A DNA stretch of 46,559 bases from Bacteroidota bacterium (GTDB lineage: Bacteria > Bacteroidota > Ignavibacteria > Kapaibacteriales > UBA2268), in assembly GCA_017428585.1 (NCBI GenBank), contig JAFRQN010000154.1:1-46559 (forward strand). Reading direction: 5' to 3'. The stretch's first letter is position 1. Every line of letters begins with the position of its first letter. This document shows positions 10 through 46,492 of this stretch, one piece after another. The notes under the pieces are model-generated. The model saw only the letters and a list, made by a program, of their open reading frames with translations, had not been told where the DNA came from and searched no databases. The translations under genes were made by a program, and so were the position numbers.

Positions 10-17
10 TATTTTTG
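10..17 (+). promoter_or_regulatory. Bacteroidota-type -7 promoter box (TAnnTTTG)
   Basis: TATTTTTG inside the ATTATTTTTGTAATA consensus, 22 nt upstream of the ATG at 40. Confidence 0.6.
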
Positions 18-39: not shown

Positions 40-489
40 ATGAAAAATAATACAACAAAAATTTTTAATAGTTACGAAGAGTTTGTAAAATATGGATTAG
101 AGAACAATGATACAGATATAAACGGAGTAACACGTGAATATTTAGAAGAGTATGGGTTAAGTTTAGAGGAGTATTCGGAGCAGAATAAGAGTAATAAGCT
201 GTGTTTTAATGTTTATAAATGTGAGAATTGTTTTCAGTGTAATGATTGTTATTCCTGTTATTCGTGTACAAATTGCAAGTTTAGTCATAGCTGTGATAAC
301 TGCAAAGACGTAAAGCATTGTTTTAATTGTAGGTTATGCAATTTATGCATGCGTTGCACAGATTGTACTTGTTGTGTTAATTGTTATGAGTGTGAGGATT
401 GCAGCGACTGCCATAGCTGTTATCGTTTGCTCAAGCAAACCTGCAGAGTTGATGAGCAGGACACACAAGAAGAAGAATTTGAGGAATGA
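40..489 (+). CDS. Cysteine-ladder (C-x2-C)n repeat protein, paralog 1
   Basis: 149 aa. N-terminal motif INGVTREYL...LEEY shared with 4 other ORFs, then 24 Cys mostly at every third residue. Has its own promoter and terminator. Confidence 0.8.
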   Translation: MKNNTTKIFNSYEEFVKYGLENNDTDINGVTREYLEEYGLSLEEYSEQNKSNKLCFNVYKCENCFQCNDCYSCYSCTNCKFSHSCDNCKDVKHCFNCRLCNLCMRCTDCTCCVNCYECEDCSDCHSCYRLLKQTCRVDEQDTQEEEFEE

Positions 490-592
490 ATAGCAGGATT
501 TGAATTATTAATGAACAAAAAACCTAAATAAATTTCAAATTATTCACTTTTCATGCAATAAGTAATTTTAATTCCTAAATTTAAATTATGAT

Positions 593-620
593 AGCTTCCT
601 ATTCTGGAAGCTATTTTTTT
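593..620 (+). terminator. Rho-independent terminator
   Basis: AGCTTCC-tattct-GGAAGCT hairpin followed by ATTTTTTT. Confidence 0.7.
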
Positions 621-4739: not shown

Positions 4740-5228
4740 TTAATAATTATCTAAATCGTGCAGCATTAAATTTAATTGTTCAAAAAATCTATTTACATTT
4801 ATATTGTCGCATATATCATTATGCCTTGCGCTTTCTGCATAGTCAAAATCCACGCAGTACCAGCATGACTTGCAAACCGTGCATTCTTCACATTCAAAAC
4901 AATTCTTGCAGCTACTGCATTTATAACATTTCGTGCATCCATCACACGCAAGACAACCTATGCAGTCTCTGCAAGTGCTTAAGCATCTTCCTGTGTTGCA
5001 ATTATGGCAATATTCGCATTTATAGCATTCATCGCAATCTGAGCATTTGTAACAATTAAAACAATTTACATTATTAAATTTATTTAAGTAATCTTTATAC
5101 TCTTCAAAATCTAATAGCCAATAATCTAAAAATTCTTGAGTACAACCATTTACTTTTTTTGTTTTTATATCTTCTAACCATTCTTCTTTATCTTTATATA
5201 AAACAAGAGGGATTTCTGGATTATTCAT
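4740..5228 (-). CDS. Cysteine-ladder (C-x2-C)n repeat protein, paralog 2
   Basis: The track ORF starts at a TTG. The ATG at 5228 (MNNPEIP) is preceded by GGAGTAAAA. Motif VNGCTQEFL...FEEY, then 25 Cys. Confidence 0.75.
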   Translation of the reverse strand: MNNPEIPLVLYKDKEEWLEDIKTKKVNGCTQEFLDYWLLDFEEYKDYLNKFNNVNCFNCYKCSDCDECYKCEYCHNCNTGRCLSTCRDCIGCLACDGCTKCYKCSSCKNCFECEECTVCKSCWYCVDFDYAESARHNDICDNINVNRFFEQLNLMLHDLDNY

Positions 5229-5559: not shown

Positions 5560-5596
5560 TGCATTACCTTTTTAAGTTATTACTAATTTTGTATTA

Positions 5597-5604
5597 CAAA
5601 AATA
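5597..5604 (-). promoter_or_regulatory. -7 promoter box (minus strand) within a palindromic TTTTGTATTACAAAA
   Basis: Reverse complement reads ATTATTATTTTTGTAATAC. A plus-strand TAATTTTG box lies at 5584-5591. Confidence 0.55.
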
Positions 5605-5634
5605 ATAATAATTTTTGAAAAAAGCAAATAAAAA

Positions 5635-22629: not shown

Positions 22630-22634
22630 AAAAT

Positions 22635-26253: not shown

Positions 26254-26364
26254 TATATTGAATATCTTATAAAGTTGGTTTATTTAATTATTTAATATTA
26301 TTATTTGAGGGAATTATGAATAATTTGTAATTCCCTTTTTTTATAAAACTATTTATTTTTAATT

Positions 26365-29259
26365 ATGGATTTTATATTTCAAACATACAAAAGACAGGAG
26401 ACTAATTTTGGCAATAAGTATATTTGTTTTATTGTATCCAAAGATTTAAAACATTTATATGCGGGTGGCAATAACTACATACAAACAAATATATTTCAAT
26501 TATCATCTATAAAAAAAGATTTGGAAAACAGCAAAGGTGGTTTTGTTAGTGATTCTGTTTCTTTTTCGTGCATAGATTACGAAGATATGTACACATTAAG
26601 CAGCGGCAATTTAATTGCAAACAACGATGCTAAATGTATTCATTTTATACTACAAAATATAGAAAAGTGTTTTTGCAGTATATTCATGAGCAATGAAAAT
26701 TTTATAATTAATAATGGTATAAACTACAATGAGCTTATAGAAGATAATTTATTATATTTAGGCAAGTTAGACGCAAAAACAACAAGTACGGATTTGAAAT
26801 GGTTGTATAATGAATATTCAAGCGACCGCCGACCATCCAAAGAATATAAATTTAATAGTAAAAGTTTAGATGCCTCACTATTGGAGGATTGTTTATTCAA
26901 TGGCAGTATTCAAGATATACGCGGGTATGATATAAAAAACGTATATGAAAGATTTGTAGAAAGTGAAGACTCGGCAGGTAATGCGTATTCTATGTTTACT
27001 AATTATTGCAAATATAGATTGTTTCATTTGCAAAAAGGAAACGACCGAGTATTATATCCATCTTTTACGTATGGAATGATTAATTTATATGAATGTTTAA
27101 GAATATATTTAGAAACTTGTCAAGATTTAATAAATGAAAAGTATAATTTAACTGATGATGATTGTATAAGCATAGTTTTAGATAATACTACATATAATGA
27201 CACAAAATTAAAAGGTATAACGTGCAATTATAACGTAAAACATAAAGCAGGCACAAAAAACTATTTAAGGTGCGTGGACGCAATAGAAGCTACAAACAAA
27301 CAATATGAATTATATATTACAGATGATGCAACAATAGATATATTAAATGCGGGTCATACTATATCAAGTAGAAATTCTGCTGCAGCTTTGTATATCCATA
27401 GAGGTATGATTTCAGGCGAGTTGATGAATGAAATTTGGCTTGGCTACACTTCTACAGATGGAACATATAGAAAAACATTAAAAGAAATAAAATTATTATT
27501 AGAAACTAATTCAGAAACTTTAACTGATGATGATAAAAAAGCAATAGAAGATTATCAAAAGAAATTAAATTATTCTAATTATTCAGACAGCTTATCATTT
27601 GAAAAGTTATATAAAAATATGTTAGAATTATTGAATGCAGTTACACAAAGTTTAGGATTAAAACTAATAATAAAATTTACTGATCCTAATACAATTACAG
27701 TTTATCTAAAAAATAGAAGCCAGTTGTCAAGCAAGGCAATAAGTTTCAAGAGTTCTACAAGTTCAAATACAAATTATTCTTATAATTTAGGAAGTACTGA
27801 TTATAAACATTACACACAAACGACCGTTAATACTTTTGGTGGTTTTAACAATTTGCGCATTCAGCCAGACGCAGGCTACATTCCACAGGAAAAACTATAT
27901 ACGAATGAAACTGAGTATTTATTTTTTACAAACAAAGTTTTTGCAGACAGCAAAGTGATGTATGAAAAGTCGGACAGACTTCAAACAGACGAATTGATTA
28001 GGCAAATAGACAAAGACAAACGAAAAATAGAAGCAATTTATAATTGTTTCAGCGTTACGCATCCGCCTATGCTTACATACGATGAGAACTATTTTTCATT
28101 TAGGCGAAGCGTATTAAATGATAAGTCAGTATTTATTAATGTAACAGATAGTATTTCAAATAGTTTAACTGAGTATGCAGAAGATTATTATTATAATTTT
28201 CATTGGGGATTTTATCAATCAATAGATTTTGAAGGTTATATATTAGAGGGTTTGACTTGTGAATATTTGCTTACTAATCTATTTATAAGAGCGAAAGCGT
28301 CTTATTTTACTGATACTTACACTGATAATTACGGCGAGCTTATAGATGTAGAAAGCACCGACAAGGCAGGTTTGTATTTTACGCGCCCTTTGGTTGGAAT
28401 AAATGCAAATATCAATAATAATACTAAATGTTATACTACATTACATGATTATTTAAATGATATATACGCATTAGATGCTTCAACATATACAACCGAAATT
28501 GATTTAGATATTCCTTACTGGTCAGCTTTTAGACAGGTTCTAAGCAACACAAATATAGATGTTTTAGATATATCAATGTGTGATTTAATAACATTAAAAA
28601 ATTATACAATAGATGCTAATAATGTATTAGTATCAACAGATGCTACATATTGTATAACTTCTATTGAAATTGATTTAACAAGACCATACGTAAAAATGAA
28701 ATTACAGAACAATAGTAAATTAGGTATGTATGATGTTAGTTTAGAATATGAGCCTGTTATAATTGAAGATAATAACAATTTTGATGTATCAAATAAGAAT
28801 ATACAAGTATATGAGGCGGGTTCGCCAATCACGAAAGGTTATGCCGTGAGGTCATACATAGATAATAGGGACGTTTCAGTTGTAGAAATTGCAGAGTCTA
28901 TATTTGATGATTACAAAGTAAACAACATAATAGGAATTGCTTTAAACGATGCTTTAACTGGTGAGTTAGTAAACATTGCAACAGGCGGTGTGGTTAATGT
29001 TGATTTTGGAAATTCGCCATGCGAAATTGGAAAAGAATTATTTGTTAGATATGGTGCAGGCGGTGTTCTTCCTGCCGACCATACAGGCAATATTGGTTAT
29101 GCAAATAGTAAATTAAATATATCATATCAAGATATTATTACAGCAAAAGACAATAACAATTTGATACAAGACGAAAATTTATATGCTAAAATTGGTTTTG
29201 TAAAAAACAAAAATTCAATAGAAATTAATATATTAGAATACAAATACGAAGGAGAATAA
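26365..29259 (+). CDS. Large tail / baseplate-associated protein with a C-terminal DUF2190-like domain
   Basis: 964 aa. The last ~130 aa (YEAGSPITKGYAV...IGIALNDALTGELV...) align by eye with the 19552 decoration protein. Confidence 0.5.
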   Translation: MDFIFQTYKRQETNFGNKYICFIVSKDLKHLYAGGNNYIQTNIFQLSSIKKDLENSKGGFVSDSVSFSCIDYEDMYTLSSGNLIANNDAKCIHFILQNIEKCFCSIFMSNENFIINNGINYNELIEDNLLYLGKLDAKTTSTDLKWLYNEYSSDRRPSKEYKFNSKSLDASLLEDCLFNGSIQDIRGYDIKNVYERFVESEDSAGNAYSMFTNYCKYRLFHLQKGNDRVLYPSFTYGMINLYECLRIYLETCQDLINEKYNLTDDDCISIVLDNTTYNDTKLKGITCNYNVKHKAGTKNYLRCVDAIEATNKQYELYITDDATIDILNAGHTISSRNSAAALYIHRGMISGELMNEIWLGYTSTDGTYRKTLKEIKLLLETNSETLTDDDKKAIEDYQKKLNYSNYSDSLSFEKLYKNMLELLNAVTQSLGLKLIIKFTDPNTITVYLKNRSQLSSKAISFKSSTSSNTNYSYNLGSTDYKHYTQTTVNTFGGFNNLRIQPDAGYIPQEKLYTNETEYLFFTNKVFADSKVMYEKSDRLQTDELIRQIDKDKRKIEAIYNCFSVTHPPMLTYDENYFSFRRSVLNDKSVFINVTDSISNSLTEYAEDYYYNFHWGFYQSIDFEGYILEGLTCEYLLTNLFIRAKASYFTDTYTDNYGELIDVESTDKAGLYFTRPLVGINANINNNTKCYTTLHDYLNDIYALDASTYTTEIDLDIPYWSAFRQVLSNTNIDVLDISMCDLITLKNYTIDANNVLVSTDATYCITSIEIDLTRPYVKMKLQNNSKLGMYDVSLEYEPVIIEDNNNFDVSNKNIQVYEAGSPITKGYAVRSYIDNRDVSVVEIAESIFDDYKVNNIIGIALNDALTGELVNIATGGVVNVDFGNSPCEIGKELFVRYGAGGVLPADHTGNIGYANSKLNISYQDIITAKDNNNLIQDENLYAKIGFVKNKNSIEINILEYKYEGE

Positions 29260-29261
29260 AT

Positions 29262-29636
29262 ATGAATATCTATTTATCTACAAATGCAAACAATAGTTCG
29301 CCAGAATTATTTAAATGTTTAAGAAAATATACAAATGAAATAGAGTCTGCTTCAGATACGAGCACCTGCTTAGATGGTACAATAGTAAAACATATAAAGT
29401 ATTATCATAGAAAACACAATATAACTATTGGTGCAGATGTATTAAGCAATAATAGTAAACTTAATTACTTAAATAGTTTTTTGGTTTCGCCGATAAAAAA
29501 ATTATCTTTTGATGGTACAAATTATGTAAATGTGATTATGAATTCTGAAACATTAAATTTATCATACGTTGATAATTTAGATTTTTTAAGAGAAGCTACA
29601 ATTACATTTATAGAAACAAATGCGGGAGGAAATTAG
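29262..29636 (+). CDS. Hypothetical tail-module protein
   Basis: 124-aa ORF with GGAG upstream. Confidence 0.5.
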   Translation: MNIYLSTNANNSSPELFKCLRKYTNEIESASDTSTCLDGTIVKHIKYYHRKHNITIGADVLSNNSKLNYLNSFLVSPIKKLSFDGTNYVNVIMNSETLNLSYVDNLDFLREATITFIETNAGGN

Positions 29637-29637
29637 A

Positions 29638-30258
29638 ATGAGTTTAGTATTAGATAAAATAAAAGGCAGTATGCTTTTATTGCCTATAACGTCAGTTCGT
29701 TTTTATTCTGATCCAGTAATTTCAAATAACACAATAACAGGCTACACAAATGATTTAACTATTTTGTATCCAGAACAGGAGAGCAGTTATTTATTTACGA
29801 AATTAGGCAATAAAAACAGCAAAGGAACATACGTAAATTATGGTTGGAATTTTGAATTGATTGTTTACGTTCCTAATAACAATTTTTATAAAGATACAAC
29901 AGAAGCTCAATTAAATGGTTTAGGTTATGATATGTTATTAGAATTAAAAAAACTAATGAATTATGGTAGTTGTTTATTAGATTTAAGACTTGGCAATGTT
30001 CCTGATGGTTCTCAATCATTAGTTGATGAGACTTTGCCTATGGGCGACCAAGAAGCGCCAACAAATATAAACTTTTCATTGCTTAGAAAAATTATAATTA
30101 AAAATGGTTCTATTGGTTATGATGTAGAACATACTGAAATACGTCCGCGCACAAAAATAACATATAATGCTTTTATTACAGATTTAACTAATAGTAATGA
30201 AATAGAATACACAGGCACGAAATATGTAGACAATGAAGAGCCAGAAGAAACTACATAA
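29638..30258 (+). CDS. Hypothetical tail-module protein
   Basis: The track start is 29620. The ATG at 29638 (MSLVLDK) follows GGGAGG and lies 2 nt after the upstream stop. Confidence 0.5.
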   Translation: MSLVLDKIKGSMLLLPITSVRFYSDPVISNNTITGYTNDLTILYPEQESSYLFTKLGNKNSKGTYVNYGWNFELIVYVPNNNFYKDTTEAQLNGLGYDMLLELKKLMNYGSCLLDLRLGNVPDGSQSLVDETLPMGDQEAPTNINFSLLRKIIIKNGSIGYDVEHTEIRPRTKITYNAFITDLTNSNEIEYTGTKYVDNEEPEETT

Positions 30259-30494
30259 AAATACGTTTTATTTTTGATTTAAGAGCATTTTGTTATTTAT
30301 CTAATAAAATATATCAAAAAAGAATAAAAATTGAATGTATGCAAAATAAACAATAAATTTTTACGTTTTAGAATAATTGCAACAATAATAACAAAAATTT
30401 TTAATAAAATTAAAAAATAATTTTATTTTTAATTAAAAAATTGTTATTTTTGTATATAACTAATTAACAATTTTTATTAACTATACTAAAAAAT

Positions 30495-30517
30495 CCTGCC
30501 GCGTTTGGAGGGGTAGG
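30495..30517 (+). ncRNA. Conserved-loop hairpin HP1
   Basis: CCTGCC-GCGTTTGGAGG-GGTAGG. Confidence 0.6.
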
Positions 30518-30762
30518 CTGAATAAACATTTAATTTTAATAATCTGTTTTTTTTGATTTATATTTCATCAACATTGAATGCTTAGAATAAAATAGCTTAA
30601 ATTCTTTTTAGGTTATGAAAGTATTTTGAAGTAATATGAAAGATATTAGAAAAGACTAAGAGATGTTTATAAGGAAGATTTTTAATAACAATAGTAAATT
30701 AGTTGTGTGTGTGAAAATAGTCAGGCGCAGTGAGTATCTGCGCCTATTATTCCACAAAATAT

Positions 30763-30837
30763 CGCGGGGTGGTGTAATTGGTAAACACGCGAGGCTGTGT
30801 ACCTTGTTAGCTGGGAGTTCGAGTCTCCCCCCTGCTA
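30763..30837 (+). tRNA. tRNA-like gene 1, anticodon position GTG (His-like), atypical
   Basis: Hand-folded cloverleaf: D arm GTGT/ACAC with a GG loop, anticodon stem CGAGG/CCTTG with loop CTGTGTA, T arm GGAG-TTCGAGT-CTCCC. C1xT72 mismatch, T at position 37, no encoded CCA. Confidence 0.55.
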
Positions 30838-30873
30838 CGAATTTAATTAATGATTGTTTAATAAATATAAAAT

Positions 30874-30896
30874 CCTGCCGTGTGCGGAGGGGCAGG
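30874..30896 (+). ncRNA. Conserved-loop hairpin HP2
   Basis: CCTGCC-GTGTGCGGAGG-GGCAGG. Confidence 0.6.
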
Positions 30897-31038
30897 TGTA
30901 TTGAGTTATAATAACATTAATTATTTTTTTTAGACATAAATAATCAAATAATTCTTCAATTTAATATCATACTAATTTTAGTATGATATTTTTTTTATTC
31001 TGCAATAAGAATTATTTTGTAATTAATTAAAAAAGTAT

Positions 31039-31261
31039 TATTTTTGTATTGTCTTTAGACATTAGGTTTGATAGGTTTAATGTAACGACAACACAACATG
31101 ATAAGGAGAATGCTTAGGAGGGTCGGCGTTCTCCTTTATTTATTTATAACATAGCGGGGTGATGTAATTGGTAAACATAGCAGGGTGGTTGCTTGCTTAT
31201 TGTAGGTTCGAATCCTTCCTCCGCAACAAAAAATTTACTTTGTATTTTAATAAAAAAGAAT
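31039..31261 (+). ncRNA. Noncoding unit b carrying tRNA-like 2
   Basis: -7 box at 31039-31046, stem AAGGAGAA/TTCTCCTT at 31103-31136, then the tRNA-like gene. No hairpin terminator before the next promoter. Confidence 0.4.
31153..31226 (+). tRNA. tRNA-like gene 2, anticodon position GGT (Thr-like), atypical
   Basis: Same 5' half as gene 1 (GCGGGGTGnTGTAATTGGTAAACA). Anticodon stem GCAGG/CTTGC with loop GTGGTTG, T loop TTCGAAT. A1xA72 mismatch, one T-stem mismatch, T at position 37. Confidence 0.5.
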
Positions 31262-31425
31262 TAATTTTGTAGTATAATTAAATTATGTTTAACTAATTAA
31301 AATCGCGCCGTGTTTGGAGGGGCGCGTGGTTTGGTTTGACATACTATCTACCTATAAAAATTTATTATAAAATTAACTTTTTGTTTTAATTAAATATCAT
31401 ACTATTCCAGTATGATATTTTTTTA
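31262..31425 (+). ncRNA. Noncoding unit c with hairpin HP3
   Basis: -7 box at 31262-31269, GTTTAACTAATTAA box, HP3, and terminator at 31394-31425. Confidence 0.55.
31304..31326 (+). ncRNA. Conserved-loop hairpin HP3
   Basis: CGCGCC-GTGTTTGGAGG-GGCGCG. Confidence 0.6.
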
Positions 31426-31466
31426 TTATAGAATAAGAATTATTTTGTAATTAATTAAAAATGTAT

Positions 31467-31643
31467 TATTTTTGTATTACAATTAATTTAATATGTTTAA
31501 CTAACTAAATTCGTACCGTGTTTGGAGGGGTACGTGTGTTGGTGTTTGGATAAACATAACTACCTGTTAATATTATTTAGTTTTATTAAATTAGAATTTT
31601 CTTGAATTTCCTTAAGATGGATAAATAATTTATCCATCTTTTT
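31467..31643 (+). ncRNA. Noncoding unit d with hairpin HP4
   Basis: -7 box at 31467-31474, GTTTAACTAACTAA box, HP4, and terminator at 31615-31643. Confidence 0.55.
31512..31534 (+). ncRNA. Conserved-loop hairpin HP4
   Basis: CGTACC-GTGTTTGGAGG-GGTACG. Confidence 0.6.
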
Positions 31644-31797
31644 ATATTAGAATTCCCAAAACAAAAGGTGCAGGTGGTTGCTCTTCTGCATCTATAAAAT
31701 ATAATTTTTCATATTTATAATAAAATTAAATTATTAAAAATAGTATTAGACTTATTTTTATTCTTTAGCAATAGATTAAAATTCTATTGCTTTTTTT
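31644..31797 (+). ncRNA. Noncoding segment e with an anticodon-arm-like hairpin
   Basis: TGCAG-GTGGTTGCTCTT-CTGCA at ~31670-31691, and terminator AGCAATAGA/TCTATTGCT+T6 at 31767-31797. No canonical promoter seen. Confidence 0.3.
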
Positions 31798-31822
31798 ATT
31801 TTGTTATTGATTAAAAATATAT

Positions 31823-32023
31823 TATTTTTGTATATAAATTTTTTCGTAATTAACAATTTTTTTAACTATTAATTTCCTTGTAATAGGGACTTCTTACAGA
31901 AGAGTTATACGTAGAAAAAGAATATAACTAATGGTAGAATTAAAGTGTTAAAGAAAAATTTTGTAATGTAGTAAAAAAAAGAAAAAAGGGATGTTAGAGA
32001 GGTTTTATGCCTCTCTTTTTTTT
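31823..32023 (+). ncRNA. Noncoding unit f
   Basis: -7 box at 31823-31830 and terminator AGAGAGG/CCTCTCT+T7 at 31996-32023. Only ORFs of 6 codons or fewer. Confidence 0.45.
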
Positions 32024-32066
32024 CTAAAAATTTACAAAAAAATTTTATTTTTAATTAAAAAATTAT

Positions 32067-32478
32067 TATTTTTGTAATATATTTGATTTTCAAATTGACT
32101 GATTCATAAGAGGTGGTTGTTACAGCTCGCCGCCTCTTATACTGGCAATAATTATTATTTATTGTATAGATTATAACTTAAAAATTGCGTTCCTTTTTTA
32201 TTTAAGTTATCATTGTTTACAGCTCACTTTATGAAATTTTTTGGCTGGTTCATGTGTGAGTTAATGAAAAAGAAAAAGAGACAAGTTTTTTTTGTGTTTC
32301 CTCTTATTTAGCTTGTCTCTTATCTTTTAACTAAGACAGCAATATTTTTTTAATTCTTATATAATCTTTAAATAATTTTTTCATATACTTTTAACATTAT
32401 TTGTTTATAAAAATTTATTTTTTGATATACTTTTGATTTTTTCATGGATAACAGAACCTATTTAGGTTCTGTTTTTTT
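32067..32478 (+). ncRNA. Noncoding unit g (or micropeptide unit)
   Basis: -7 box at 32067-32074, 11-bp stem at 32106-32140, 10-bp stem at 32276-32321, terminator at 32451-32478. Contains a 26-codon ORF at 32231-32311. Confidence 0.4.
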
Positions 32479-32523
32479 ATGCAATAAGAATAAAAATTAT
32501 TTTGTTTTTAATTAAAATTTTTG

Positions 32524-32776
32524 TATTTTTGTATTACAATTAATTAACATTTTTTTTTACAAATAATTTTTTATATTTCTATTAAATCTATACATAAATA
32601 TATTTTAATATGTTATTTGATATCCTGCTTTATCTATTACTCAGTGCCAATTAAATAAGTTTATCATAATAGAAAAGCAAAAAATGTTATTAAATGTAGT
32701 TAATATATATAAAATCATCCAGAATAATAATGAGCAACAGAATTATTAAAAAAATTTAATAATTCTGTTTTTTTAT
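32524..32776 (+). ncRNA. Noncoding unit h
   Basis: -7 box at 32524-32531 and a 12-bp-stem terminator at 32736-32776. Only ORFs of 14-21 codons. Confidence 0.4.
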
Positions 32777-32791
32777 TTGCTCCAGAATTTA

Positions 32792-32901
32792 TATTTTTGT
32801 ACAATAATTAACTATTTATTCAAAATTTCAATAAAATGGTTTAATTTTTGATTCAGTATTATTTATATATCTTCAAGCAGGATGCCTCTCCTGCTTTTTT
32901 T
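32792..32901 (+). ncRNA. Noncoding unit i (~95 nt)
   Basis: -7 box at 32792-32799 and terminator AGCAGGA/TCCTGCT+T6 at 32876-32901. The only ATG opens a 2-codon ORF. Confidence 0.5.
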
Positions 32902-32935
32902 ATATAAAAAGTTTTGTTATTTGAAATAAAATTAT

Positions 32936-33094
32936 TATTTTTGTATATAATTATTTTTGTTTAACTAATTAAATAATAATTGCTTATCAATTTTATTTAT
33001 TTAACTCTCAAATTATATAAAGACTTAAACATAAATAATTGCAAGTGTTCGGCTAATTGGAAATTTAGGGAAGCAAAAACTTCCCTTTTTTTTT
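32936..33094 (+). ncRNA. Noncoding unit j (~140 nt)
   Basis: Tandem -7 boxes at 32936-32943 and 32952-32959, GTTTAACTAATTAA box, terminator GGGAAG/CTTCCC+T9 at 33068-33094. No ATG in the unit. Confidence 0.5.
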
Positions 33095-33114
33095 GATATT
33101 TATTAAAAATTTAT

Positions 33115-33193
33115 TATTTTTGTTTACAAGATATAGATTCATTGAAGTAAAAAGGAAAATTTGAAGCAATAATTTTATATTATTGCTTTTTTT
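33115..33193 (+). ncRNA. Noncoding unit k (~65 nt)
   Basis: -7 box at 33115-33122 and terminator AGCAATAAT/ATTATTGCT+T6 at 33165-33193. No ATG. Confidence 0.5.
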
Positions 33194-33218
33194 ATTTGTA
33201 AATAATCCAGGAAATATA

Positions 33219-33301
33219 TATTTTTGTACTGCCTTTATAAAAATATAAATTTTAATAGCTCTGATAAGATGGGACGGTATGCCTAACCGTCCCAATTTTT
33301 T
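33219..33301 (+). ncRNA. Noncoding unit l (~70 nt)
   Basis: -7 box at 33219-33226 and hairpin GGGACGG/CCGTCCC followed by AATTTTTT at 33271-33301. Confidence 0.45.
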
Positions 33302-33316
33302 AAAATTTTCGGCTTC

Positions 33317-33625
33317 CCAAGACCGAGACTGGTTCGCGGCACTCGTGGAAACCATCAGTCGTATGCATCCGATACGAGACTACTTAAAAGCGCCGGGTCT
33401 ATACCTTCTGCATTACACGTCTATACTCGATACTACTAAAAAACATCGAATTTTTTGGGTCTCCAAGACCGAGACCGGTTCGCGGCGAGCGCGGTTTCAT
33501 CCCCCTTCTCATCCGAGACTCGGTGTTACCCGAGACTTCTTAAAAGCGCGGTTCTTGACTTCCTGCAATACTAAGATTTACTGGATACTACTAAAAAGCA
33601 TCGAAAAAATGCCAAAAAATCCGAA
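33317..33625. repeat. GC-rich island A: two tandem ~150-bp repeat units plus a partial third
   Basis: CCAAGACCGAGACyGGTTCGCGGC at 33317 and 33463. GAGACTwCTTAAAAGC at 33376, 33532 and 33703. GATACTACTAAAAArCATCGAA at 33429 and 33584. Confidence 0.7.
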
Positions 33626-33640
33626 AAAATGGGTCAAAAA
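33604..33640. other. Four helically phased A-tracts (predicted intrinsic DNA bend)
   Basis: A6 at 33604, 33614 and 33624, and A5 at 33636, giving a 10-12 bp period. Confidence 0.6.
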
Positions 33641-33650
33641 TTGTGGTTGT

Positions 33651-33670
33651 CCCCCCCCCGCACCCCCCCC
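33651..33670. repeat. Paired homopolymers C9-GCA-C8
   Basis: CCCCCCCCCGCACCCCCCCC. Slippage-prone, with G-quadruplex / i-motif potential. Confidence 0.7.
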
Positions 33671-33785
33671 AAGTTTTTTCAAAAAAAGTCCCGCTGTTGC
33701 CCGAGACTTCTTAAAAGCAGTATTTCTATACTCTCTGCGAAACTATACTTAAAAATAAGACTTTGCTATACTTAAAGAATATACC

Positions 33786-33814
33786 AAAAAAAAAGCACGC
33801 TCAATGCGTGCTTT
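33786..33814 (-). terminator. Terminator of cysteine-ladder gene 3
   Basis: AAAGCACGC-tcaat-GCGTGCTTT with a T-run on the minus strand. Confidence 0.7.
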
Positions 33815-33830: not shown

Positions 33831-34376
33831 CTACAAATATTTGTAAACTAATCTGCGTTTAATTAATTTAGAATCATACAGGTTGATTTTTCTTGCTCTG
33901 TTATAATTTAGCAGGCTGTCAATATAAGCGTTGCTGCACATTTCGGCGTTATTGCAGAAATTGCAGTTATTACAGCAGTAACAATTAGTGCAGGCTTCGC
34001 ATTTATAGGACATTTCGCAATTAAGGCAATGTTCGCATTTGATGCAGTTATAAATATTTACGCAGTCGTAATTGCCGTAAGATTTAGAGGCGTTGTTGCA
34101 TTTTATGCAATCTATGCAATTAATACAGGACATACAGGACGCACAGCATTCACAATAGGAGCATTTGACGCAGTCTGTGCAGTTTTTACAATTATAACAA
34201 TTAAAGCAATGAAAATTATTTTGATTTAGGTTTTCGTATTCTTCAAGGGTTAAATTTGCCCAATTTAGGAAATCTTGCGTTACGCCGTTTATTATATATT
34301 TCCAGTTCCATTTTTTATATTCTTTAAATTCGTTATAATCTTTAAATAATAGAGTTTTGATTTTATATTTTAACAT
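33831..34376 (-). CDS. Cysteine-ladder (C-x2-C)n repeat protein, paralog 3
   Basis: 181 aa. Motif INGVTQDFL...LEEY, then 27 Cys. Leader is ATAGGAATTAAAAATT-ATG. Confidence 0.8.
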   Translation of the reverse strand: MLKYKIKTLLFKDYNEFKEYKKWNWKYIINGVTQDFLNWANLTLEEYENLNQNNFHCFNCYNCKNCTDCVKCSYCECCASCMSCINCIDCIKCNNASKSYGNYDCVNIYNCIKCEHCLNCEMSYKCEACTNCYCCNNCNFCNNAEMCSNAYIDSLLNYNRARKINLYDSKLIKRRLVYKYL

Positions 34377-34399
34377 AATTTTTAATTCCTATAAAATTT

Positions 34400-34435
34400 T
34401 AATAAAAGATACAGGAGAGGCTAATCCTCTCCTGT
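34400..34435 (-). terminator. Hairpin overlapping the stop of cysteine-ladder gene 4
   Basis: ACAGGAGAGG-ctaat-CCTCTCCTGT, followed on the minus strand by a T-rich stretch. Confidence 0.5.
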
Positions 34436-34918
34436 TAATATATAATGGTATAAATCGACCATTTTATTTTTTAATTTAATATTAGAAATTTCGTTTCCAT
34501 ATTTTACATTTGTGCAATTTTTGCTTTTGCGGAGCGTTTCGCATTTTTCGCATTTTGTGCAGTCGTCGCAGTCTTCACAATCGGTGCAAAAACTCGCTCT
34601 TTTACAATAGAAGCATCTAATATCAAAGAAGCAGTAATGACAACCTATGCAGTCATCGCAATCTTGGCAATTAAAGCAATTATGGCAAGATTGGCAATTT
34701 ATGCAATCTTCGCAACCCATGCAGTTCCAGCAATAGTAGTTTGTTTCGTTGAACTTTTGGTAAAGTTCGAAAGAGAGGAGATAATTTTTTAAGAAAAGCT
34801 CGGAGCATCCGTTTATTTTTTCGTTCGGATGATATTCAAGGTAATTTTGAAAATCCTCATAGCTTTCAAAAATTTTAGTTAAAAATTTTTGTTCAGAATT
34901 GTTTTGTTTTTTCAGCAT
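34421..34918 (-). CDS. Cysteine-ladder (C-x2-C)n repeat protein, paralog 4
   Basis: The track ORF begins at a TTG inside the promoter. The ATG at 34918 (MLKKQNN) follows ATAGGAATTAAAATT. Motif INGCSELFL, then 22 Cys. Confidence 0.75.
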   Translation of the reverse strand: MLKKQNNSEQKFLTKIFESYEDFQNYLEYHPNEKINGCSELFLKNYLLSFELYQKFNETNYYCWNCMGCEDCINCQSCHNCFNCQDCDDCIGCHYCFFDIRCFYCKRASFCTDCEDCDDCTKCEKCETLRKSKNCTNVKYGNEISNIKLKNKMVDLYHYILTGED

Positions 34919-34959
34919 AATTTTAATTCCTATAAAATTTGATTTTCGAAAAAGAGTTG

Positions 34960-34980
34960 TATTTTTGTAATACAAAAATA
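34960..34980. promoter_or_regulatory. Palindromic bidirectional promoter (TATTTTTGTAATACAAAAATA)
   Basis: Plus-strand box at 34960-34967 and minus-strand box at 34973-34980. Confidence 0.55.
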
Positions 34981-35100
34981 CAAAAATTTTTCGAAAACTC
35001 CAAAAAATTTTTAATTTTTTGGATGGAAATATTCGAAAATTTTTTTGAAAAATTTTTTTATTTTTTTCAAAAAAAATTTGGTTTTTTCGAAAAAAAGTGT

Positions 35101-35108
35101 TATATTTG
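35101..35108 (+). promoter_or_regulatory. -7 promoter box preceded by a T6-CG-A7 palindrome
   Basis: TATATTTG. TTTTTTCGAAAAAAA at 35082-35096, the same arrangement as at 40130-40157. Confidence 0.5.
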
Positions 35109-35142
35109 TATTATAAAAAATGAAAAAAAAAAGGAACGCACA

Positions 35143-35400
35143 ATGAAACGCAAGAACAGATATTCAAAAGTTACAAACGCAATGATTCTCGAAGAGCTAA
35201 GGAAAATCCGCCAATGCCGCAACGCGGAGGAATACATCGCATTAAAAAAAGCGGAGCGAAGAGCAAGGCGGATTAAAATTGCGAAAAAGATATTTTTCGG
35301 AATTTTAAAAGCTCCGTTTGTCCTCGCCGAGCTCTATTTAGTTTTATTTGATTTTTCAGATTTGCGCAGCAGAGGCGGACGCCCAGAGAGGCGGTACTAA
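35143..35400 (+). CDS. Small basic protein with a C-terminal hydrophobic helix
   Basis: Internal ATG of track ORF 34939..35400. Peptide MKRKNRYSKV...IFFGILKAPFVLAELYLVLF. The 3' end runs into GC island C. Confidence 0.4.
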   Translation: MKRKNRYSKVTNAMILEELRKIRQCRNAEEYIALKKAERRARRIKIAKKIFFGILKAPFVLAELYLVLFDFSDLRSRGGRPERRY

Positions 35401-35590
35401 ACAGGAGCAGGAAGCAAGGGAGCAGGGACGGCGGGAGCCGCCAAGAGGAGCGGACGCCCAAAGGGGCGCCACCCAGCCACCCTTCTTACAAACCTAAAAA
35501 AAAGAGCAGGAAGAAAAAGGAGACAAGGCGTTCCGCCCAAAGAGACTAAAAAAAATAAAAAAAAATCTTGCATAATTCAAAAAAAAGTAT

Positions 35591-35598
35591 TATTTTTG
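35591..35598 (+). promoter_or_regulatory. -7 promoter box
   Basis: AAAAAAGTATTATTTTTGTAATACAAAAAT. Confidence 0.6.
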
Positions 35599-35652
35599 TA
35601 ATACAAAAATTAACAATAAATAAAAACAAAAACAAAAATAGGAATTAAAACA

Positions 35653-36000
35653 ATGCAAAGTACAGAAAAGAGATTTATTTGTTTAAGACGTGGGATTTTT
35701 ACACGCAAGCCTTATATAGTAACAGAAAAAGCCACTCTAAGATTAAACAACACATTAAAAGGAGATTTCCCTATGGTTTTTAATTTAGCATTATTAAAGA
35801 CAAAAGATGCTTTTTATTTTGAGCAATATATAAAAAGCAAATTAAAGGGAATAAACGAATACGATTACCCAGTAAATTACATAATACGATTATTTATGGA
35901 ATGTTGGGATATGTCAAGTGATGGCGAATTAAAGATAGGAGATAAAAAAGCAGTTAACAAACCAAGATATACAGTAGAGGAGGGTTTAGTATGTTTATAA
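35653..36000 (+). CDS. Hypothetical protein
   Basis: 115-aa ORF with leader ATAGGAATTAAAACA-ATG. Confidence 0.55.
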   Translation: MQSTEKRFICLRRGIFTRKPYIVTEKATLRLNNTLKGDFPMVFNLALLKTKDAFYFEQYIKSKLKGINEYDYPVNYIIRLFMECWDMSSDGELKIGDKKAVNKPRYTVEEGLVCL

Positions 36001-40999: not shown

Positions 41000-42475
41000 A
41001 TGGAAAGTCAAGATAATTTATTTGGAATTGAAGCGAATGAAGCACCTGTTCAAGTTAATACAGAGTTAGATTTAGAGCAGTCAATTACTAATCTTGCTAA
41101 AGAGTTTCAAGGAGTAGTTGATGATAATGATTTTAAGAATTGTTTTATAATAGTTTTATTTTATCGTTTTATTTCAGAGAATTACGATGATATAATAGAA
41201 AAAGAATGTTTATTTAATTATGTAAAAGAACAATTAAAACAAGATATCAATTTGAATGATTACTTAAAGTCTGTATTTAGTAAAGTAGAAAAAGCAAAAT
41301 ACAGCACAGAATGGTCTTCACAATTTGAAGGATTGTTTGATGATTTCAAAGGATTAGACAACAGACATATAAAATTATTGTTTGATTGTATAGCAAGGTT
41401 GGATATAAGCAACAAAGATCATACTGATTATTTTGGTTTTATCTTTGAATACTTTTTAATGTTTTATTCCAGTAACAGCAGGAAGTACAGCGGAGCTTTT
41501 TTTACTCCTGTTTGTGTTAGTAAATTATTGGCAAGGTTAGTACGCAGGGATTATTACGGTACAGAATTAGAAGACCCATATTTTAGAATATACGACCCTA
41601 CGTGTGGAAGTGGTACATTGTTATTATCAACATATAAAGAATTAAAAAGAGATGGATTTAATCTAAAAGTAAAAGGACAAGAGATTAATAAAACTTCATC
41701 ACGATTAGCAAGAATGAATATGATAATAAACAACATACAGATATATAATATAGGATGTGGTGATACTTTATTAAATCCATTGTATAAGAATGAGAGGTTT
41801 GATGCTATTGTAAGTAATCCGCCATATAGTATAAAGTGGGCTGGTTCAGATAATCCTGATTTAATAAAAGATGAACGTTATTCACCTGCTGGCGTATTAG
41901 CTCCAAAAGGCAAAGCAGATTATGCTTTTATTATGCATTCATTATATCATTTGAAAGAAAGCGGGAGTTATTATGGTGTTGTATTTCCTGGTGTATTGTA
42001 TAGAGATGGAGCAGAAGCAAAGATAAGAAAGTATTTGATTGATAATAATTTTGTAAAAGCAATAATACAATTACCATCAAATTTATTTTATGGCACACAG
42101 ATTTCAGTTTGTATAATGATATTATCAAAGAAGAAAGAAAGAGAAGGAGTAGTATTTATAGATGCAAGCAATGAATGTATAAAAGATGGCAAATTTAATA
42201 CATTGACAGATGAGAATATAAATAATATATGTTCTTGGGTTAATGTTATAGAAAGTTATAGAAGCCAATTTGTAACGAATGAAGAAATAGCAAAGAATAG
42301 ATATGCATTGACTGTAACTCAATATGTAGAACAGGAAGACAAGAAAGAAAAGATTGATATTGTTGCATTGAATAGAGAAATTAGAGAATTGCACGCAAGG
42401 AACGAAGCTAATTTTCAGAAGATGGAAGCGTGGGTAAGAGAAATGAATGAATTGTTAGGAATAGTAGATGAATAA
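41000..42475 (+). CDS. hsdM: Type I restriction-modification N6-adenine DNA methyltransferase subunit
   Basis: GAFFTP, DPTCGSGTLL (AdoMet motif I) and SNPPYS (motif IV). Confidence 0.85.
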   Translation: MESQDNLFGIEANEAPVQVNTELDLEQSITNLAKEFQGVVDDNDFKNCFIIVLFYRFISENYDDIIEKECLFNYVKEQLKQDINLNDYLKSVFSKVEKAKYSTEWSSQFEGLFDDFKGLDNRHIKLLFDCIARLDISNKDHTDYFGFIFEYFLMFYSSNSRKYSGAFFTPVCVSKLLARLVRRDYYGTELEDPYFRIYDPTCGSGTLLLSTYKELKRDGFNLKVKGQEINKTSSRLARMNMIINNIQIYNIGCGDTLLNPLYKNERFDAIVSNPPYSIKWAGSDNPDLIKDERYSPAGVLAPKGKADYAFIMHSLYHLKESGSYYGVVFPGVLYRDGAEAKIRKYLIDNNFVKAIIQLPSNLFYGTQISVCIMILSKKKEREGVVFIDASNECIKDGKFNTLTDENINNICSWVNVIESYRSQFVTNEEIAKNRYALTVTQYVEQEDKKEKIDIVALNREIRELHARNEANFQKMEAWVREMNELLGIVDE

Positions 42476-43049
42476 TAGATTAAAAGAGTTTATAGAATTA
42501 AAGAAACAAGGTTTTAATTATGGGTTATTGTGTGAATGCTGTAATATCTTAGACAACAAAAGAGAAAGAATAAGAAAAGCAGACCGTGAAGCTGGGATAT
42601 ATCCATATTATGGACCGAATGGAGTACAGGCTTACGTAAACAAATATACATTTGATGGAGAGTTTGTATTAGTTGCAGAGAAAGGCGTTGTAACAACAGA
42701 AGAAGGGCGTCCCATAGTAAACTGGGCAACAGGCAAGATTGGTTGTGGTGATAGTGTGCATATCATAAGCGAAAGGCAAGGCACATTATTAAGATTTTTA
42801 TATTATTATTTGCAATGTGTAGATATAAGAATGATAGTAACTACAGGAATGATACCATCATTAACAATTACAGCTTTTAGAAATATAAGAGTTCCAATTA
42901 TTCCCATAGAATATCAACAAGAAATAGTAAACGTTTTAGATATGGTTTATTATAGTTATAAAGATTTAGAAAAGGAATACAAATTGATAGACAAGTTATT
43001 AAAGCAGAATCTTACTTCAAAATTATTAAATTTTAAGGATTTGAAATAA
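42468..43049 (+). CDS. hsdS: Half-size type I specificity subunit (single target-recognition domain)
   Basis: 193 aa. IYPYYGPNGVQAYVNKYTFDGEFVLVAEKG is the typical HsdS TRD core. Overlaps hsdM by 8 nt. Confidence 0.75.
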   Translation: MNNRLKEFIELKKQGFNYGLLCECCNILDNKRERIRKADREAGIYPYYGPNGVQAYVNKYTFDGEFVLVAEKGVVTTEEGRPIVNWATGKIGCGDSVHIISERQGTLLRFLYYYLQCVDIRMIVTTGMIPSLTITAFRNIRVPIIPIEYQQEIVNVLDMVYYSYKDLEKEYKLIDKLLKQNLTSKLLNFKDLK

Positions 43050-43282: not shown

Positions 43283-43324
43283 AGTTTTTTATAAAAAATG
43301 TTTGTTTATTTCAAAAGAAATTAT

Positions 43325-43332
43325 TATTTTTG
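43325..43332 (+). promoter_or_regulatory. -7 promoter box only 12 nt from an ATG (near-leaderless)
   Basis: ATGTTTGTTTATTTCAAAAGAAATTATTATTTTTGTAATACAGAATT-ATG. Confidence 0.55.
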
Positions 43333-43344
43333 TAATACAGAATT

Positions 43345-44768: not shown

Positions 44769-44976
44769 ATGTCAAGAATGTAAAGTTACATTTGAAGATT
44801 ATAATGAGTTAAAAAAAAACTTTTCATTAACAGACTGCTATATGTGTAAATTAGCATTTTTTACGTGTTATCCTTTTAATTTAGCAGTTTCACGTTATAA
44901 AGAAGAATATAAATTAGAAGTATTAAATAAAATTTTTACAGTATATAAGAAAGTTAAAGGGAGAATTAAAGAATGA
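44758..44976 (+). CDS. Small zinc-ribbon protein, paralog Z4
   Basis: Likely start is MMNKCQEC (track start 44737). CQEC-x19-CYMCKLAFF. Confidence 0.5.
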   Translation: MMNKCQECKVTFEDYNELKKNFSLTDCYMCKLAFFTCYPFNLAVSRYKEEYKLEVLNKIFTVYKKVKGRIKE

Positions 44977-45467
44977 GAACAAAAGTTTTCAATAATTTAG
45001 AGGATTATAAGACATACGTCAAATTAAATCCAGGTACTCTTATAAATGGAGTAACACAAGAATTTTTAGATGATTTTTATGAGTCATCATTAGAGGATTG
45101 CAATTCTGACAATGCAACAAATGAATTATGTTTTAATTGTTATAATTGCAAAGAATGCCATAGATGTATGGAGATGTGGTGTTCTAAATGTTGCAATAAT
45201 TGTTCAGAGTGTACAAATTGTAAAAATTGCAATGACTGCTATGATTGCAGTGAATGCATAGGCTGTTCGTATTGCTGTGAATGTGTAAAGTGTGAGAATT
45301 GCAGCAAATCATTTGAATGTGAGAGTTGTTATTTATGTAAAGGAATTTCAAACTCAAGCAATAGAGCATTTATTAAACATATAGTATTAGATAAAGATGT
45401 AATAGTATTTAATAGTTTATTTAATTTTGTAGAAAATTATAAATGCTATTTATCTGATGTTTTATGA
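44973..45467 (+). CDS. Cysteine-ladder (C-x2-C)n repeat protein, paralog 5
   Basis: 164 aa. Motif INGVTQEFL, then 26 Cys. GGGAG upstream. ATGA overlaps with both neighbouring genes. Confidence 0.8.
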   Translation: MRTKVFNNLEDYKTYVKLNPGTLINGVTQEFLDDFYESSLEDCNSDNATNELCFNCYNCKECHRCMEMWCSKCCNNCSECTNCKNCNDCYDCSECIGCSYCCECVKCENCSKSFECESCYLCKGISNSSNRAFIKHIVLDKDVIVFNSLFNFVENYKCYLSDVL

Positions 45468-46492
45468 TAGAATTAAATAAAGAATATAAAGACAAGCTAA
45501 AAGGAATTAAATTTATAGATTTATTTTGTGGGTTGGGAGGTTTTAGATTAGCTTTAGAATCATTTGGTGCAGAATGTGTATTTAGTTCAGACATAGACAA
45601 GAACGTAAGCAAAACATACTTTGATAATTTTAATGATAATTGTTTGAATGATATAACAAAGACGGAGGCGGTAGAAATACCGTCTCATAATATTTTGTGT
45701 GGTGGGTTCCCTTGTCAAGCATTTAGTATAGGTGGATACAAGAAAGGTTTTGATGATGAGCGTGGAGTTCTATTTTTGGATATAATAAGAATAGCAAAAT
45801 ACCATCTGCCAGAATTATTGTTTTTAGAAAATGTAAAAGGATTAGTTGAGCATGACGAAGGAAAGACATTTAAAATAATTGTTGATTGTTTAGAAGATTT
45901 AGGATATAATGTTTATACAAAGGTTCTAAACAGCAAGTATTTTGACGTTCCGCAGTCAAGAGAACGTATTTATTTTATATGTATAAGACAAGATATAGAC
46001 AATAAGACTTTTGAATTTCCAAAAGAAACAAAGATTAATAAAACAATAAAAGACATATTGCTTTCTTCTGATGAGATAAAAGAGAATTTGTTTATAGATA
46101 GAGAACGGTGTCATTTGAATCATAAATATACAAATAACAATTTATTTGATACAGAAGAAAAAAGGCTGTTGGTTGCTGGATACAATGGGATTAAAGACCA
46201 TAACAACAACAGGATATATTACGCTGACGGTTTATTTTGTACCTATACAAAAAGCACAGGTTCAACAAATAACGGTGGTGGGATTGTATTAAACAACAAA
46301 GTAAGACGTTTGCAAAAGAGGGAAGTGATGCGTTTGTTTGGCTTTCCTGATAGTTACAAGATTGATTATTCACATTATAAGATATGCCAACAAGCTGGGA
46401 ACAGCGTTGTAGTAAATGTAATACAAAGTATAATAAAGAATTTGATTGATACAAAGGCAATAAAAAGCTATCATAAATTTAATATAAAATGA
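45464..46492 (+). CDS. dcm: DNA (cytosine-5) methyltransferase
   Basis: FCGLGGF (motif I), GGFPCQAFS (IV), ENVKGL (VI), QSRERIYF (VIII), GNSVVVNV (X). Confidence 0.9.
   Translation: MIELNKEYKDKLKGIKFIDLFCGLGGFRLALESFGAECVFSSDIDKNVSKTYFDNFNDNCLNDITKTEAVEIPSHNILCGGFPCQAFSIGGYKKGFDDERGVLFLDIIRIAKYHLPELLFLENVKGLVEHDEGKTFKIIVDCLEDLGYNVYTKVLNSKYFDVPQSRERIYFICIRQDIDNKTFEFPKETKINKTIKDILLSSDEIKENLFIDRERCHLNHKYTNNNLFDTEEKRLLVAGYNGIKDHNNNRIYYADGLFCTYTKSTGSTNNGGGIVLNNKVRRLQKREVMRLFGFPDSYKIDYSHYKICQQAGNSVVVNVIQSIIKNLIDTKAIKSYHKFNIK

Follow-up and report, generated by a model that had tools for sequence, protein, structure and literature searches.

The 46,559-nucleotide (nt) stretch studied here (contig JAFRQN010000154.1, hereafter the window) comes from a tailed phage with 29% G+C, and it raises the question of what five cysteine-rich proteins encoded in it are and what they may do for the phage. 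Each protein has an N-terminal domain of ~50 amino acids (aa), called the head in the following, a run in which cysteine (Cys) recurs at every third position, called the ladder, and a C-terminal tail. We find that the five are real genes and members of a family of ~2,000 protein clusters, and the way in which ladder cysteines are replaced suggests a repeat fold. The proteins are numbered paralogs 1 to 5 by their position in the window.

Five genes and their family

Translation reproduced all five open reading frames (ORFs) of a first-pass annotation made from the DNA alone, both in coordinates and in strand, and its cysteine counts were exact (Table 1). Each paralog has 17-20 overlapping C-x-x-C pairs, and 17-20 times per protein the next cysteine follows at a distance of three residues. 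Among the six-frame stop-to-stop segments of at least 50 aa, none outside the five paralogs has more than three C-x-x-C pairs, and no further family-like ORF was found in the window. The alignment spans a head of ~55 aa and the cysteine run, with 34-39% identity to paralog 1, and paralogs 3 and 4 match each other at E = 2e-14 in BLASTP with composition adjustment on. Invariant in all five are N-G in the head, C-[FW]-N at the junction between head and ladder, and many cysteine columns. The observation of five paralogs is thus correct and well past chance.

The motifs first given for the head were partly too narrow. The pattern [IV]NG[VC][TS]x[ED][FY]L holds for paralogs 1, 2, 3 and 5 and fails for paralog 4 (INGCSELFL), and [LF]EEY fails for paralog 5 (LEDC) and paralog 4 (FELY). 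All five paralogs fit a head with N-G-[VC]-[TS]-x-x-F-L, a junction with C-[FW]-N-C, and (C-x-x)n. Written out further, the head reads x-I-F-x-x-x-E-F ... N-G-[VC]-[TS]-x-x-F-L, the conserved junction reads N-x-[TS]-N-x-x-C-[FW]-N-C, and the ladder is a tripeptide repeat (C - x1 - x2)n. The C-terminal tails of the paralogs are unlike one another.

A 9-nt TGY periodicity accompanies such a ladder, and a DNA repeat left open by chance could give the same picture; the periodicity is indeed present at the DNA level (direct-repeat family D8). Related contigs of ~46.9 kb (ENA records named WILK20-1) hold orthologues of paralogs 1, 2 and 5. The ratio of non-synonymous to synonymous substitution rates (dN/dS) against these relatives is 0.19-0.23 for paralog 1, 0.17-0.18 for paralog 2 and 0.26-0.30 for paralog 5. 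When codons are divided by class, head and tail have values of 0.22 and 0.23, ladder cysteines 0.01 and the remaining ladder positions 0.29, and the ladder cysteine codons carry one non-synonymous change against eight synonymous ones. Nucleotide identity to the relatives is 88-92% for paralogs 1 and 2 and 96-97% for neighbouring genes. Furthermore, the non-repetitive head is conserved across ~2,000 clusters, AG-rich Shine-Dalgarno-like stretches (AGGA, AGGAG, GGGAG) stand just 5' of the start in four of the five cases, and promoter matches and terminator-like hairpins are found at the genes. The chance repeat is refuted for practical purposes, and the five ORFs are genuine genes, each maintained separately and under selection at the level of the protein. 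The selection seen is purifying; the value of 0.29 at non-Cys ladder positions gives no sign of a diversifying kind, and strong selection, as had been read from the presence of five copies, does not follow from their number.

An exhaustive profile search seeded by the five paralogs returned 1,965 clusters (defined at 50% identity) at E <= 1e-3 and 469 at E <= 1e-10, among them an orthologue of paralog 4 (P0026). Compared with this, a word-indexed protein search recovered few members (19, 35 and 21 matches). With the five paralogs as query, a viral contig collection gave three loci only, and a scan of genome contigs with back-translated CWNCxxCxxCxxCxxC gave 124 ORFs of which ~10 are true members, the rest being mostly simple DNA repeats that were read in other frames. 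The paralogs are not private to this genome; they belong to a family of ~2,000 clusters, whose members are found in phages and prophages assigned to Bacteroidota, Pseudomonadota and Cyanobacteria. Head identity is 31-47% among the five paralogs and up to 51% to outsiders, so that they stand no nearer to one another than to other members of the family. Old duplications or separate acquisitions, and not a recent expansion, gave rise to them.

Database matches to the family are scarce. All five paralogs match PHROG 15341 (function unknown) with E = 4e-6 to 1e-11, the match being restricted to the ladder part of the 276-position profile. Among 50,697 GenBank phage records, matches were found only in Flavobacterium phage FL-1, where the gene is labelled 'hypothetical protein', and in the N4-like Vibrio phages 1.238.A and 1.238.B, where it is annotated 'insect antifreeze protein' via InterPro IPR016133. 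Pfam and NCBIfam gave no match for the five paralogs (E <= 1 in both), and scans of relatives with the same two libraries gave none. The initial statement that the architecture is not assignable to a characterised family stands, there being no Pfam, NCBIfam, PADLOC or fold match. No paper describing the family was found in the literature. The family has been clustered as PHROG 15341, one member carries an InterPro label, and it is otherwise undescribed.

The ladder as a probable repeat fold

On the structure of the ladder the sequences tell more than the predicted models. One indication comes from 148 sites in the family at which a single ladder cysteine is missing. The residue in register is Ser in 52%, Leu in 16%, Ile in 8% and Ala in 5% of cases. 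Small and aliphatic residues together occupy 93% of these sites against a background of 33%, and N, Q, D, E, K and R occupy 2.7% against 54% (p about 1e-53). One-step codon neighbours of cysteine (Tyr, Phe, Arg, Gly, Trp) are rare. Since no single base change turns TGY into a codon for Leu, Ile or Ala, this is selection for a buried position and not mutational proximity. The Cys position thus behaves as a buried core position, which suggests that the ladder is a repeat fold with an inward residue at every third position. At x2, N, D or G is found in ~60% of triplets, and these are the residues usual at turn positions in solenoids; at x1, aromatic and aliphatic residues are common, with Tyr, Phe and Trp frequent.

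Structure prediction was carried out with AlphaFold2 for paralog 3 (17 sequences) and paralog 1 (27 sequences). In both runs the head was predicted with a local confidence score (pLDDT) of ~90, reaching over the first 3-5 cysteines, in the order strand-helix-strand-helix-helix. A hidden Markov model (HMM) of the head only, searched against PDB sequences, had adenylylsulfate reductase subunit B as its only match, a non-significant one (E = 0.22). The best PDB sequence match in an HMM search was the Tenebrio antifreeze beta-helix 1EZG with E = 9e-4, a weak and composition-biased match (domain score 20.9, bias score as high as 39.2).

1EZG is a disulfide-stapled right-handed beta-helix with 12-residue coils and the repeat TCTxSxxCxxAx, in which Cys, Ser, Cys and Ala point inward. 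These inward residues equal the in-register set of the ladder (Cys, then Ser, Leu, Ile and Ala), and the 12-residue coil equals a weak super-period of the ladder. In contrast to the antifreeze protein, with cysteine every 6 residues, the ladder has cysteine every 3 residues; the paralog translations contain no ice-binding Thr-Cys-Thr face or TCT array; and the paralogs have no signal peptide and possess a folded head of ~50 aa. Neither AlphaFold2 nor Foldseek reproduced the antifreeze fold.

The likeness to a disulfide-held helix could also mean that the paralogs are true counterparts of the secreted antifreeze fold of insects, either exported and stapled by disulfides or built into the virion, and paralog 2 does lie downstream of a tape-measure-family gene. 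We consider this very unlikely. The translations of all five N-termini, read directly, contain no hydrophobic signal-like stretch, paralog 2 stands in a separate promoter unit after a terminator, homologues are found in early and replication regions, and disulfides would be unlikely if the host is an anaerobe, as we assume.

A second repeat family is linked to the ladder by a shared domain. In a prophage subfamily the order is head, ladder and a C-terminal domain 'P-x-I-E-N-I-H ... L-D-M-x-x-W-H-x-C-x-T-T-H-C-R-A-G-W', with records assigned to Dyadobacter, Chamaesiphon, Cytophagales, Candidatus Kapaibacterium and metagenome-assembled genomes (MAGs) of Gamma- and Betaproteobacteria. The domain 'IENIH...LDM..WH.C.TTHCRAGW' was located at L135 25-516, L136 3516-4310 and L064 2187-2924; the window holds no copy. 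No Pfam or NCBIfam model matches it; a site that binds metal or is catalytic is suggested by the Cys and His residues conserved in it. Copies of this domain are also carried by 19 records of Ralstonia phages (e.g. RSK1, RsoP1IDN and Bakoly), by two Ralstonia syzygii replicons and by one Bordetella plasmid. There it is preceded by pentapeptide repeats of variable number, ~7 in Bakoly gp01 (the first annotated gene of its record) and ~27 in RsoP1IDN gp04.

Pentapeptide-repeat proteins form a four-sided beta-helix, and Qnr and MfpA among them are DNA mimics acting on gyrase. From the shared C-terminal domain it follows that the Cys ladder occupies the slot of a four-sided beta-helix in a related architecture. 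The order of cap or head, repeats and 'IENIH...HCRAGW' is common to the Ralstonia phage proteins and the prophage ladder proteins, the number of repeats varies in both, and both stand at or near the annotated record start or in early regions (Bakoly gp01). The two repeats differ in that the paralogs have neither A(D/N)LXX nor a match to Pfam Pentapeptide (E <= 1), and in that the ladder unit has 3 residues and not 5, with a core of Cys and not of Leu/Phe. The solenoid named as a possibility in the first-pass annotation thus gains indirect support from the in-register substitutions, the pentapeptide-repeat slot and the 1EZG match.

The main rival to such a packed fold is a metallothionein-like metal-thiolate store or buffer. 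Here the ladder would have no regular fold and would wrap around clusters of Zn, Cu, Cd or Fe-S, the purpose being to sequester or supply metal or to disturb the redox or metal balance of the host, and the head would serve for folding or solubility only. Several features suit this explanation: Cys makes up ~1/3 of the ladder, constraint on the Cys codons is very strong, and several copies would give a higher dose. As in metallothioneins, C-x-x-C spacing is the rule and AlphaFold2 gives no confident regular secondary structure to the ladder, a doubt that would be expected for a metal-dependent fold. We nevertheless hold the store to be unlikely. Lost cysteines become Ser, Leu, Ile or Ala, whereas the alternative metal ligands His and Asp are found at only 1 and 3 of the 148 sites and polar residues as a whole are rare, a pattern that suits a packed core more than a chelating site. 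Aromatic and aliphatic residues are common at x1, unlike in metallothioneins, and the strict 3-residue register also sets the paralogs apart. Dose alone leaves the divergence of the heads and tails unexplained, and in related architectures the ladder is exchangeable with the pentapeptide repeat, which binds no metal.

Two distinctions that had been drawn at the outset hold as well. Metallothioneins lack an N-terminal domain such as the head of ~50 aa found here. A DnaJ CxxCxGxG domain is contradicted by the absence of a Pfam DnaJ_CXXCXGXG match and by Gly not being enriched after the second Cys. In addition, the CxxCxxCxxxCP of 2[4Fe-4S] ferredoxins is absent from the paralogs, in which the fourth Cys comes at +3 and the ladder contains no Pro; the one hint in that direction is the non-significant match to adenylylsulfate reductase subunit B. 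The nearest known kind is the Cys-rich beta-solenoid, from which the family differs by its all-Cys tripeptide register, its dedicated head, its cytoplasmic phage setting and its exchangeability with pentapeptide repeats.

Architectures and possible roles

The common form of the family has 60-150 aa and the pattern M-K-T-x-I-F-x-x-Y-x-E-F-x-x-R-x-D-K-x-x-N-G-V-S-x-E-F ... N-x-T-N-x-G-C-W-N-C-(x-x-C)n. The smallest members (59-66 aa) consist of the head and 4-6 cysteines, and the longest ladder (L120) brings the range among homologues to 4 to ~60 cysteines. At least four cysteines follow the head in every complete protein returned; the 37-aa fragment P0206 stops before the junction. Polyproteins of up to eight head-plus-ladder units exist (P0020). 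Other heads precede the same ladder, among them 'DGYWIDENGNRW...' and 'ADENGNINC...'. Occasionally the head-plus-ladder module shares a predicted protein with dUTPase (P0119), M78 peptidase (P0145), a helicase fragment (P0141) or S-adenosylmethionine lyase. An Api92/DUF1281-like domain in P0028 and a DUF1599/MazG-like domain in P0020 and P0030 had been considered; neither was confirmed by Pfam, and both were dropped.

Such fusions raise the possibility that the ladder is a rigid spacer of adjustable length and the proteins are adaptors or tethers, with the function residing in two places, the conserved head, which would bind a single partner shared by all, and the tail or fused domain, which varies. 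The wide range of ladder lengths, the differing tails of the paralogs and the conserved C-terminal domain after the ladder in the prophage subfamily agree with this. However, many members end directly after the ladder, without a tail, and ladders stand behind at least three unrelated heads, which makes the ladder itself the common functional element. Some of the fusions may also be read-through artefacts of gene calling in metagenome contigs. All in all we find the spacer rather improbable.

The repeat also resembles precursors of modified peptides. Heterocycloanthracin and sonorensin, of the thiazole/oxazole-modified microcin (TOMM) class, have precursors in which a conserved leader is followed by Cys-Xaa-Xaa units whose number varies, and heterocycloanthracin precursors can be encoded far from the maturation genes (Haft 2009, PMC2674419). 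The family likewise has a conserved N-terminal region, Cys-Xaa-Xaa repeats and indels in three-residue units, so that the head could be a leader and the ladder a core converted by host enzymes to thiazoles or thioethers. This is hardly credible for the paralogs. There is no match in NCBIfam, a library which we take to include the heterocycloanthracin model TIGR03601, and cyclodehydratase, dehydrogenase, docking protein, radical S-adenosylmethionine and export genes were not found among the scanned ORFs of the window or in relatives. With 150-180 aa and structured tails the paralogs are two to three times longer than precursors of 50-90 aa. Moreover, the head is a confidently folded domain, eight-unit polyproteins exist, and the family is borne by phages of many phyla without conserved enzyme neighbours.

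The position of the homologues bears on what the proteins may do. In phages and prophages they sit among small genes, in regions that are early, accessory or devoted to replication: in L064 after Cro/CI-like regulators, in L096 next to dcm and NinG, in L138 between two methyltransferases, and in L139 as the first gene past a divergent intergenic region. Erf is also found among their neighbours. Several ladder genes per phage are common, with four in L007 and three in L012. In L007, a phage-like contig of 64.7 kb, the four ladder proteins lie within 5 kb (2354-6932). Their head, 'MDKKELLELGYSRYLK', is a different one, their tail 'YMIQNIQLTEEEY' is conserved, and an Acb2/Tad1-like gene and dCMP deaminase are found nearby. 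One family member (L069 5357-6055) stands in a chromosomal-looking context of a Cellvibrionales MAG, among what we take, from reading their translations, to be coaE-, yacG- and mutT-like genes.

Taken as a whole, the best explanation we can offer, a tentative one held with somewhat less than even confidence, is that the paralogs are thin, rigid, metal-held repeat rods acting as an early set of binders or decoys. The ladder would be akin to the beetle antifreeze beta-helix and its coil of 12 residues, with ~4 inward residues per turn, and the head would cap it. The Cys core would be held by bound metal (Zn or Fe) rather than by disulfides; metal is more likely because the proteins have no signal peptide and would be cytoplasmic, and because the host is probably an anaerobic Bacteroidota. 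The residues at x1 and x2 would make up a surface that is variable and for the most part acidic, and bound metal would contribute further negative charge by way of the thiolates. The proteins would be expressed early, each paralog with its own surface and tail, and may mimic nucleic acid, thereby holding host DNA-targeting or defence proteins.

We place less confidence in the binder or decoy role than in the fold, and a number of observations weigh against one or the other. The anti-defence role has only genomic position and analogy with pentapeptide-repeat proteins as its basis, and early regions hold many kinds of genes. PADLOC gave no match for the five paralogs and five relatives (E <= 0.01), and the EVADES preprint, which covers 268 anti-defence proteins, contains none of the words cysteine, zinc, pentapeptide or solenoid. 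No positive selection on exposed ladder positions is seen at the available divergence (dN/dS 0.29). The isoelectric point (pI) is 4.6-5.1 in four of the five paralogs and below 5.5 in 73% of short family members. Yet the median net charge is ~-5 per 100 aa, an acidity that is moderate, unlike that of Ocr, and charge alone does not support a DNA mimic; moreover, paralog 3 is basic and L064 and L120 have Arg-rich ladders. As to the fold, the ladder has a pLDDT of only ~30-55 in both AlphaFold2 runs, although a plain beta-solenoid is usually well predicted. Foldseek found no match for either model in PDB or BFVD, the ladder models being of low confidence. The 1EZG match carries the composition bias given above, and the super-period of four triplets (12 residues) is weak (z = 3.6 for N/D at x2) and marginal after multiple testing.

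In its boldest form the proposal would be an undescribed fold, a tripeptide mini-solenoid of ~12 residues per turn with an unbroken column of metal thiolates as its core. It would form a compact and highly negative rod of adjustable length, by which phages of many phyla mimic nucleic acid and disarm restriction or defence proteins of the host, the five paralogs being a counter-defence set with several targets. We regard this full combination as rather improbable.

Genomic setting in the window

Products encoded in the window include the large subunit of terminase, a portal, a head protease, the major head protein and Erf, as well as two methyltransferase systems. No GenBank phage matched the window in Megablast. 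The pattern TTTG-N17-21-TAnnTTTGTA has 18 exact matches against 0.36 expected. The earlier guess of a Bacteroidota-type host is supported by these matches because we take the pattern to be the Bacteroidota promoter consensus, and the host is probably of this type. The features around the five genes are collected in Table 1.

Table 1. The five paralogs and the signals and gene adjoining them, in order of position in the window
Feature	Position	Strand	Remarks
-7 box TATTTTTG, Bacteroidota-type promoter of paralog 1	10..17	+	junction compared with L001
Paralog 1	40..489	+	149 aa, 24 Cys, pI 4.6, acidic C-terminal tail
Terminator-like hairpin, ~100 nt past paralog 1	590..615	+	
Paralog 2	4740..5228	-	162 aa, 25 Cys, pI 4.6
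Bacteroidota-type promoter match for ORF 5221-5559 and paralog 2	5595..5628	-	
Terminator ahead of promoter 5595-5628	5635-5658		
Terminator-like hairpin after paralog 3	33792..33814	-	
Paralog 3	33831..34376	-	181 aa, 27 Cys, pI 8.2, basic tail predicted helical
Terminator-like hairpin between paralogs 4 and 3	34411..34435	-	3' of paralog 4, overlapping its stop
Paralog 4	34421..34918	-	165 aa, 22 Cys, pI 5.1
Bacteroidota-type promoter match 5' of paralog 4	34971..35004	-	
Nearest + strand promoter match 5' of paralog 5	43301..43334	+	
Paralog 5	44973..45467	+	164 aa, 26 Cys, pI 4.7
Cytosine-5 DNA methyltransferase dcm	45464..46492	+	translationally coupled to paralog 5

The paralogs had been described as self-contained cassettes, four of them moron-like. 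This applies to two or three copies; paralogs 2 and 5 lie inside multigene units. Paralog 2 comes second, after ORF 5221-5559, in a unit of two genes headed by the promoter at 5595-5628, and paralog 5 belongs to an operon of small genes beginning at 43301-43334. For paralog 3 no match to the promoter consensus was found. The leader ATAGGAATTAAAA, reported as shared by paralogs 3 and 4, is indeed exact before both, but it also stands before the unrelated ORF 35653-36000; it is a common leader of the phage and no mark of the family.

The coupling of paralog 5 to dcm was confirmed, the paralog 5 stop overlapping the dcm start as ATGA. dcm is inserted precisely at the stop codon of paralog 5. The relatives have no dcm at that place, their paralog 5 is one residue longer (...SDVLE), and it is followed directly by paralog 1, from which we conclude that the genome is permuted in the window and that paralogs 5 and 1 adjoin each other. 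In the relatives paralog 1 has a full promoter with a terminator ahead; compared with their interval between paralogs 5 and 1, ~55 nt (terminator and -33 box) are missing at the window junction.

Counting dcm, the phage has two DNA methylation systems. The other one, at 41000-43049 (+), comprises a 491-aa N6-adenine methyltransferase (PHROG 2713/6380), whose orthologues have the Pfam domains N6_Mtase and Eco57I, and behind it a type I specificity-like subunit of 193 aa (Methylase_S), and no nuclease was recognised with these genes. The tape-measure-family match near paralog 2 is a 1,909-aa protein at 5724-11453 (-). The head and tail genes at 17080-30258 are on the other strand, and the gene comes after those for terminase, portal and 'minor head protein and DNA pilot'. 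This placement is unusual for a tape measure, and the protein may be an ejected internal protein.

The 18 exact promoter matches include those at 1402, 3407, 4699, 5595, 34938-35110, 36108, 39690, 40126 and 43301. Seven others form an array at 30400-33230 (+), 180-600 nt apart, or ~10 copies when the wider repeat family D1-D3 is counted, and suggest many very short transcription units. A GC-rich element AAATCCTGCCGYGTTTGGAGGGGYAGG with self-complementary ends occurs four times on the + strand (30487-30517, 30866-30896, 31296-31326 and 31504-31534), each copy 3' of an arrayed promoter, and is interleaved with tRNA-His (30763-30838) and tRNA-Thr (31153-31227). These elements, which have no Rfam match, may be small RNAs or processing signals.

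The pair of paralogs 3 and 4 is flanked by GC-rich islands at 33270-33760 and 35200-35600 (45-55% G+C against 29% in the genome). The first contains internal direct repeats, namely five CCGAGACTTCTTAAAAGC-like units, 38-nt and 57-nt pairs ~150 nt apart, and a C-rich tract near 33652-33672. The long ORFs listed in the islands look spurious. Rfam gave no match to the islands even at E <= 1, and they are candidates for structured non-coding RNA.

For the family itself, the findings mean that ~2,000 clusters exist without a Pfam or NCBIfam model or a structure, and the exchange of ladder and pentapeptide repeats before a shared C-terminal domain is a concrete link between two repeat families. If the metal-stapled solenoid is true, the ladder would be a new minimal repeat scaffold, of interest to protein designers and metalloprotein chemists. 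As early decoys, if that is what they are, the proteins would widen the known counter-defence tools of phages by a broad class, and this would explain why several diverged copies are retained per phage.

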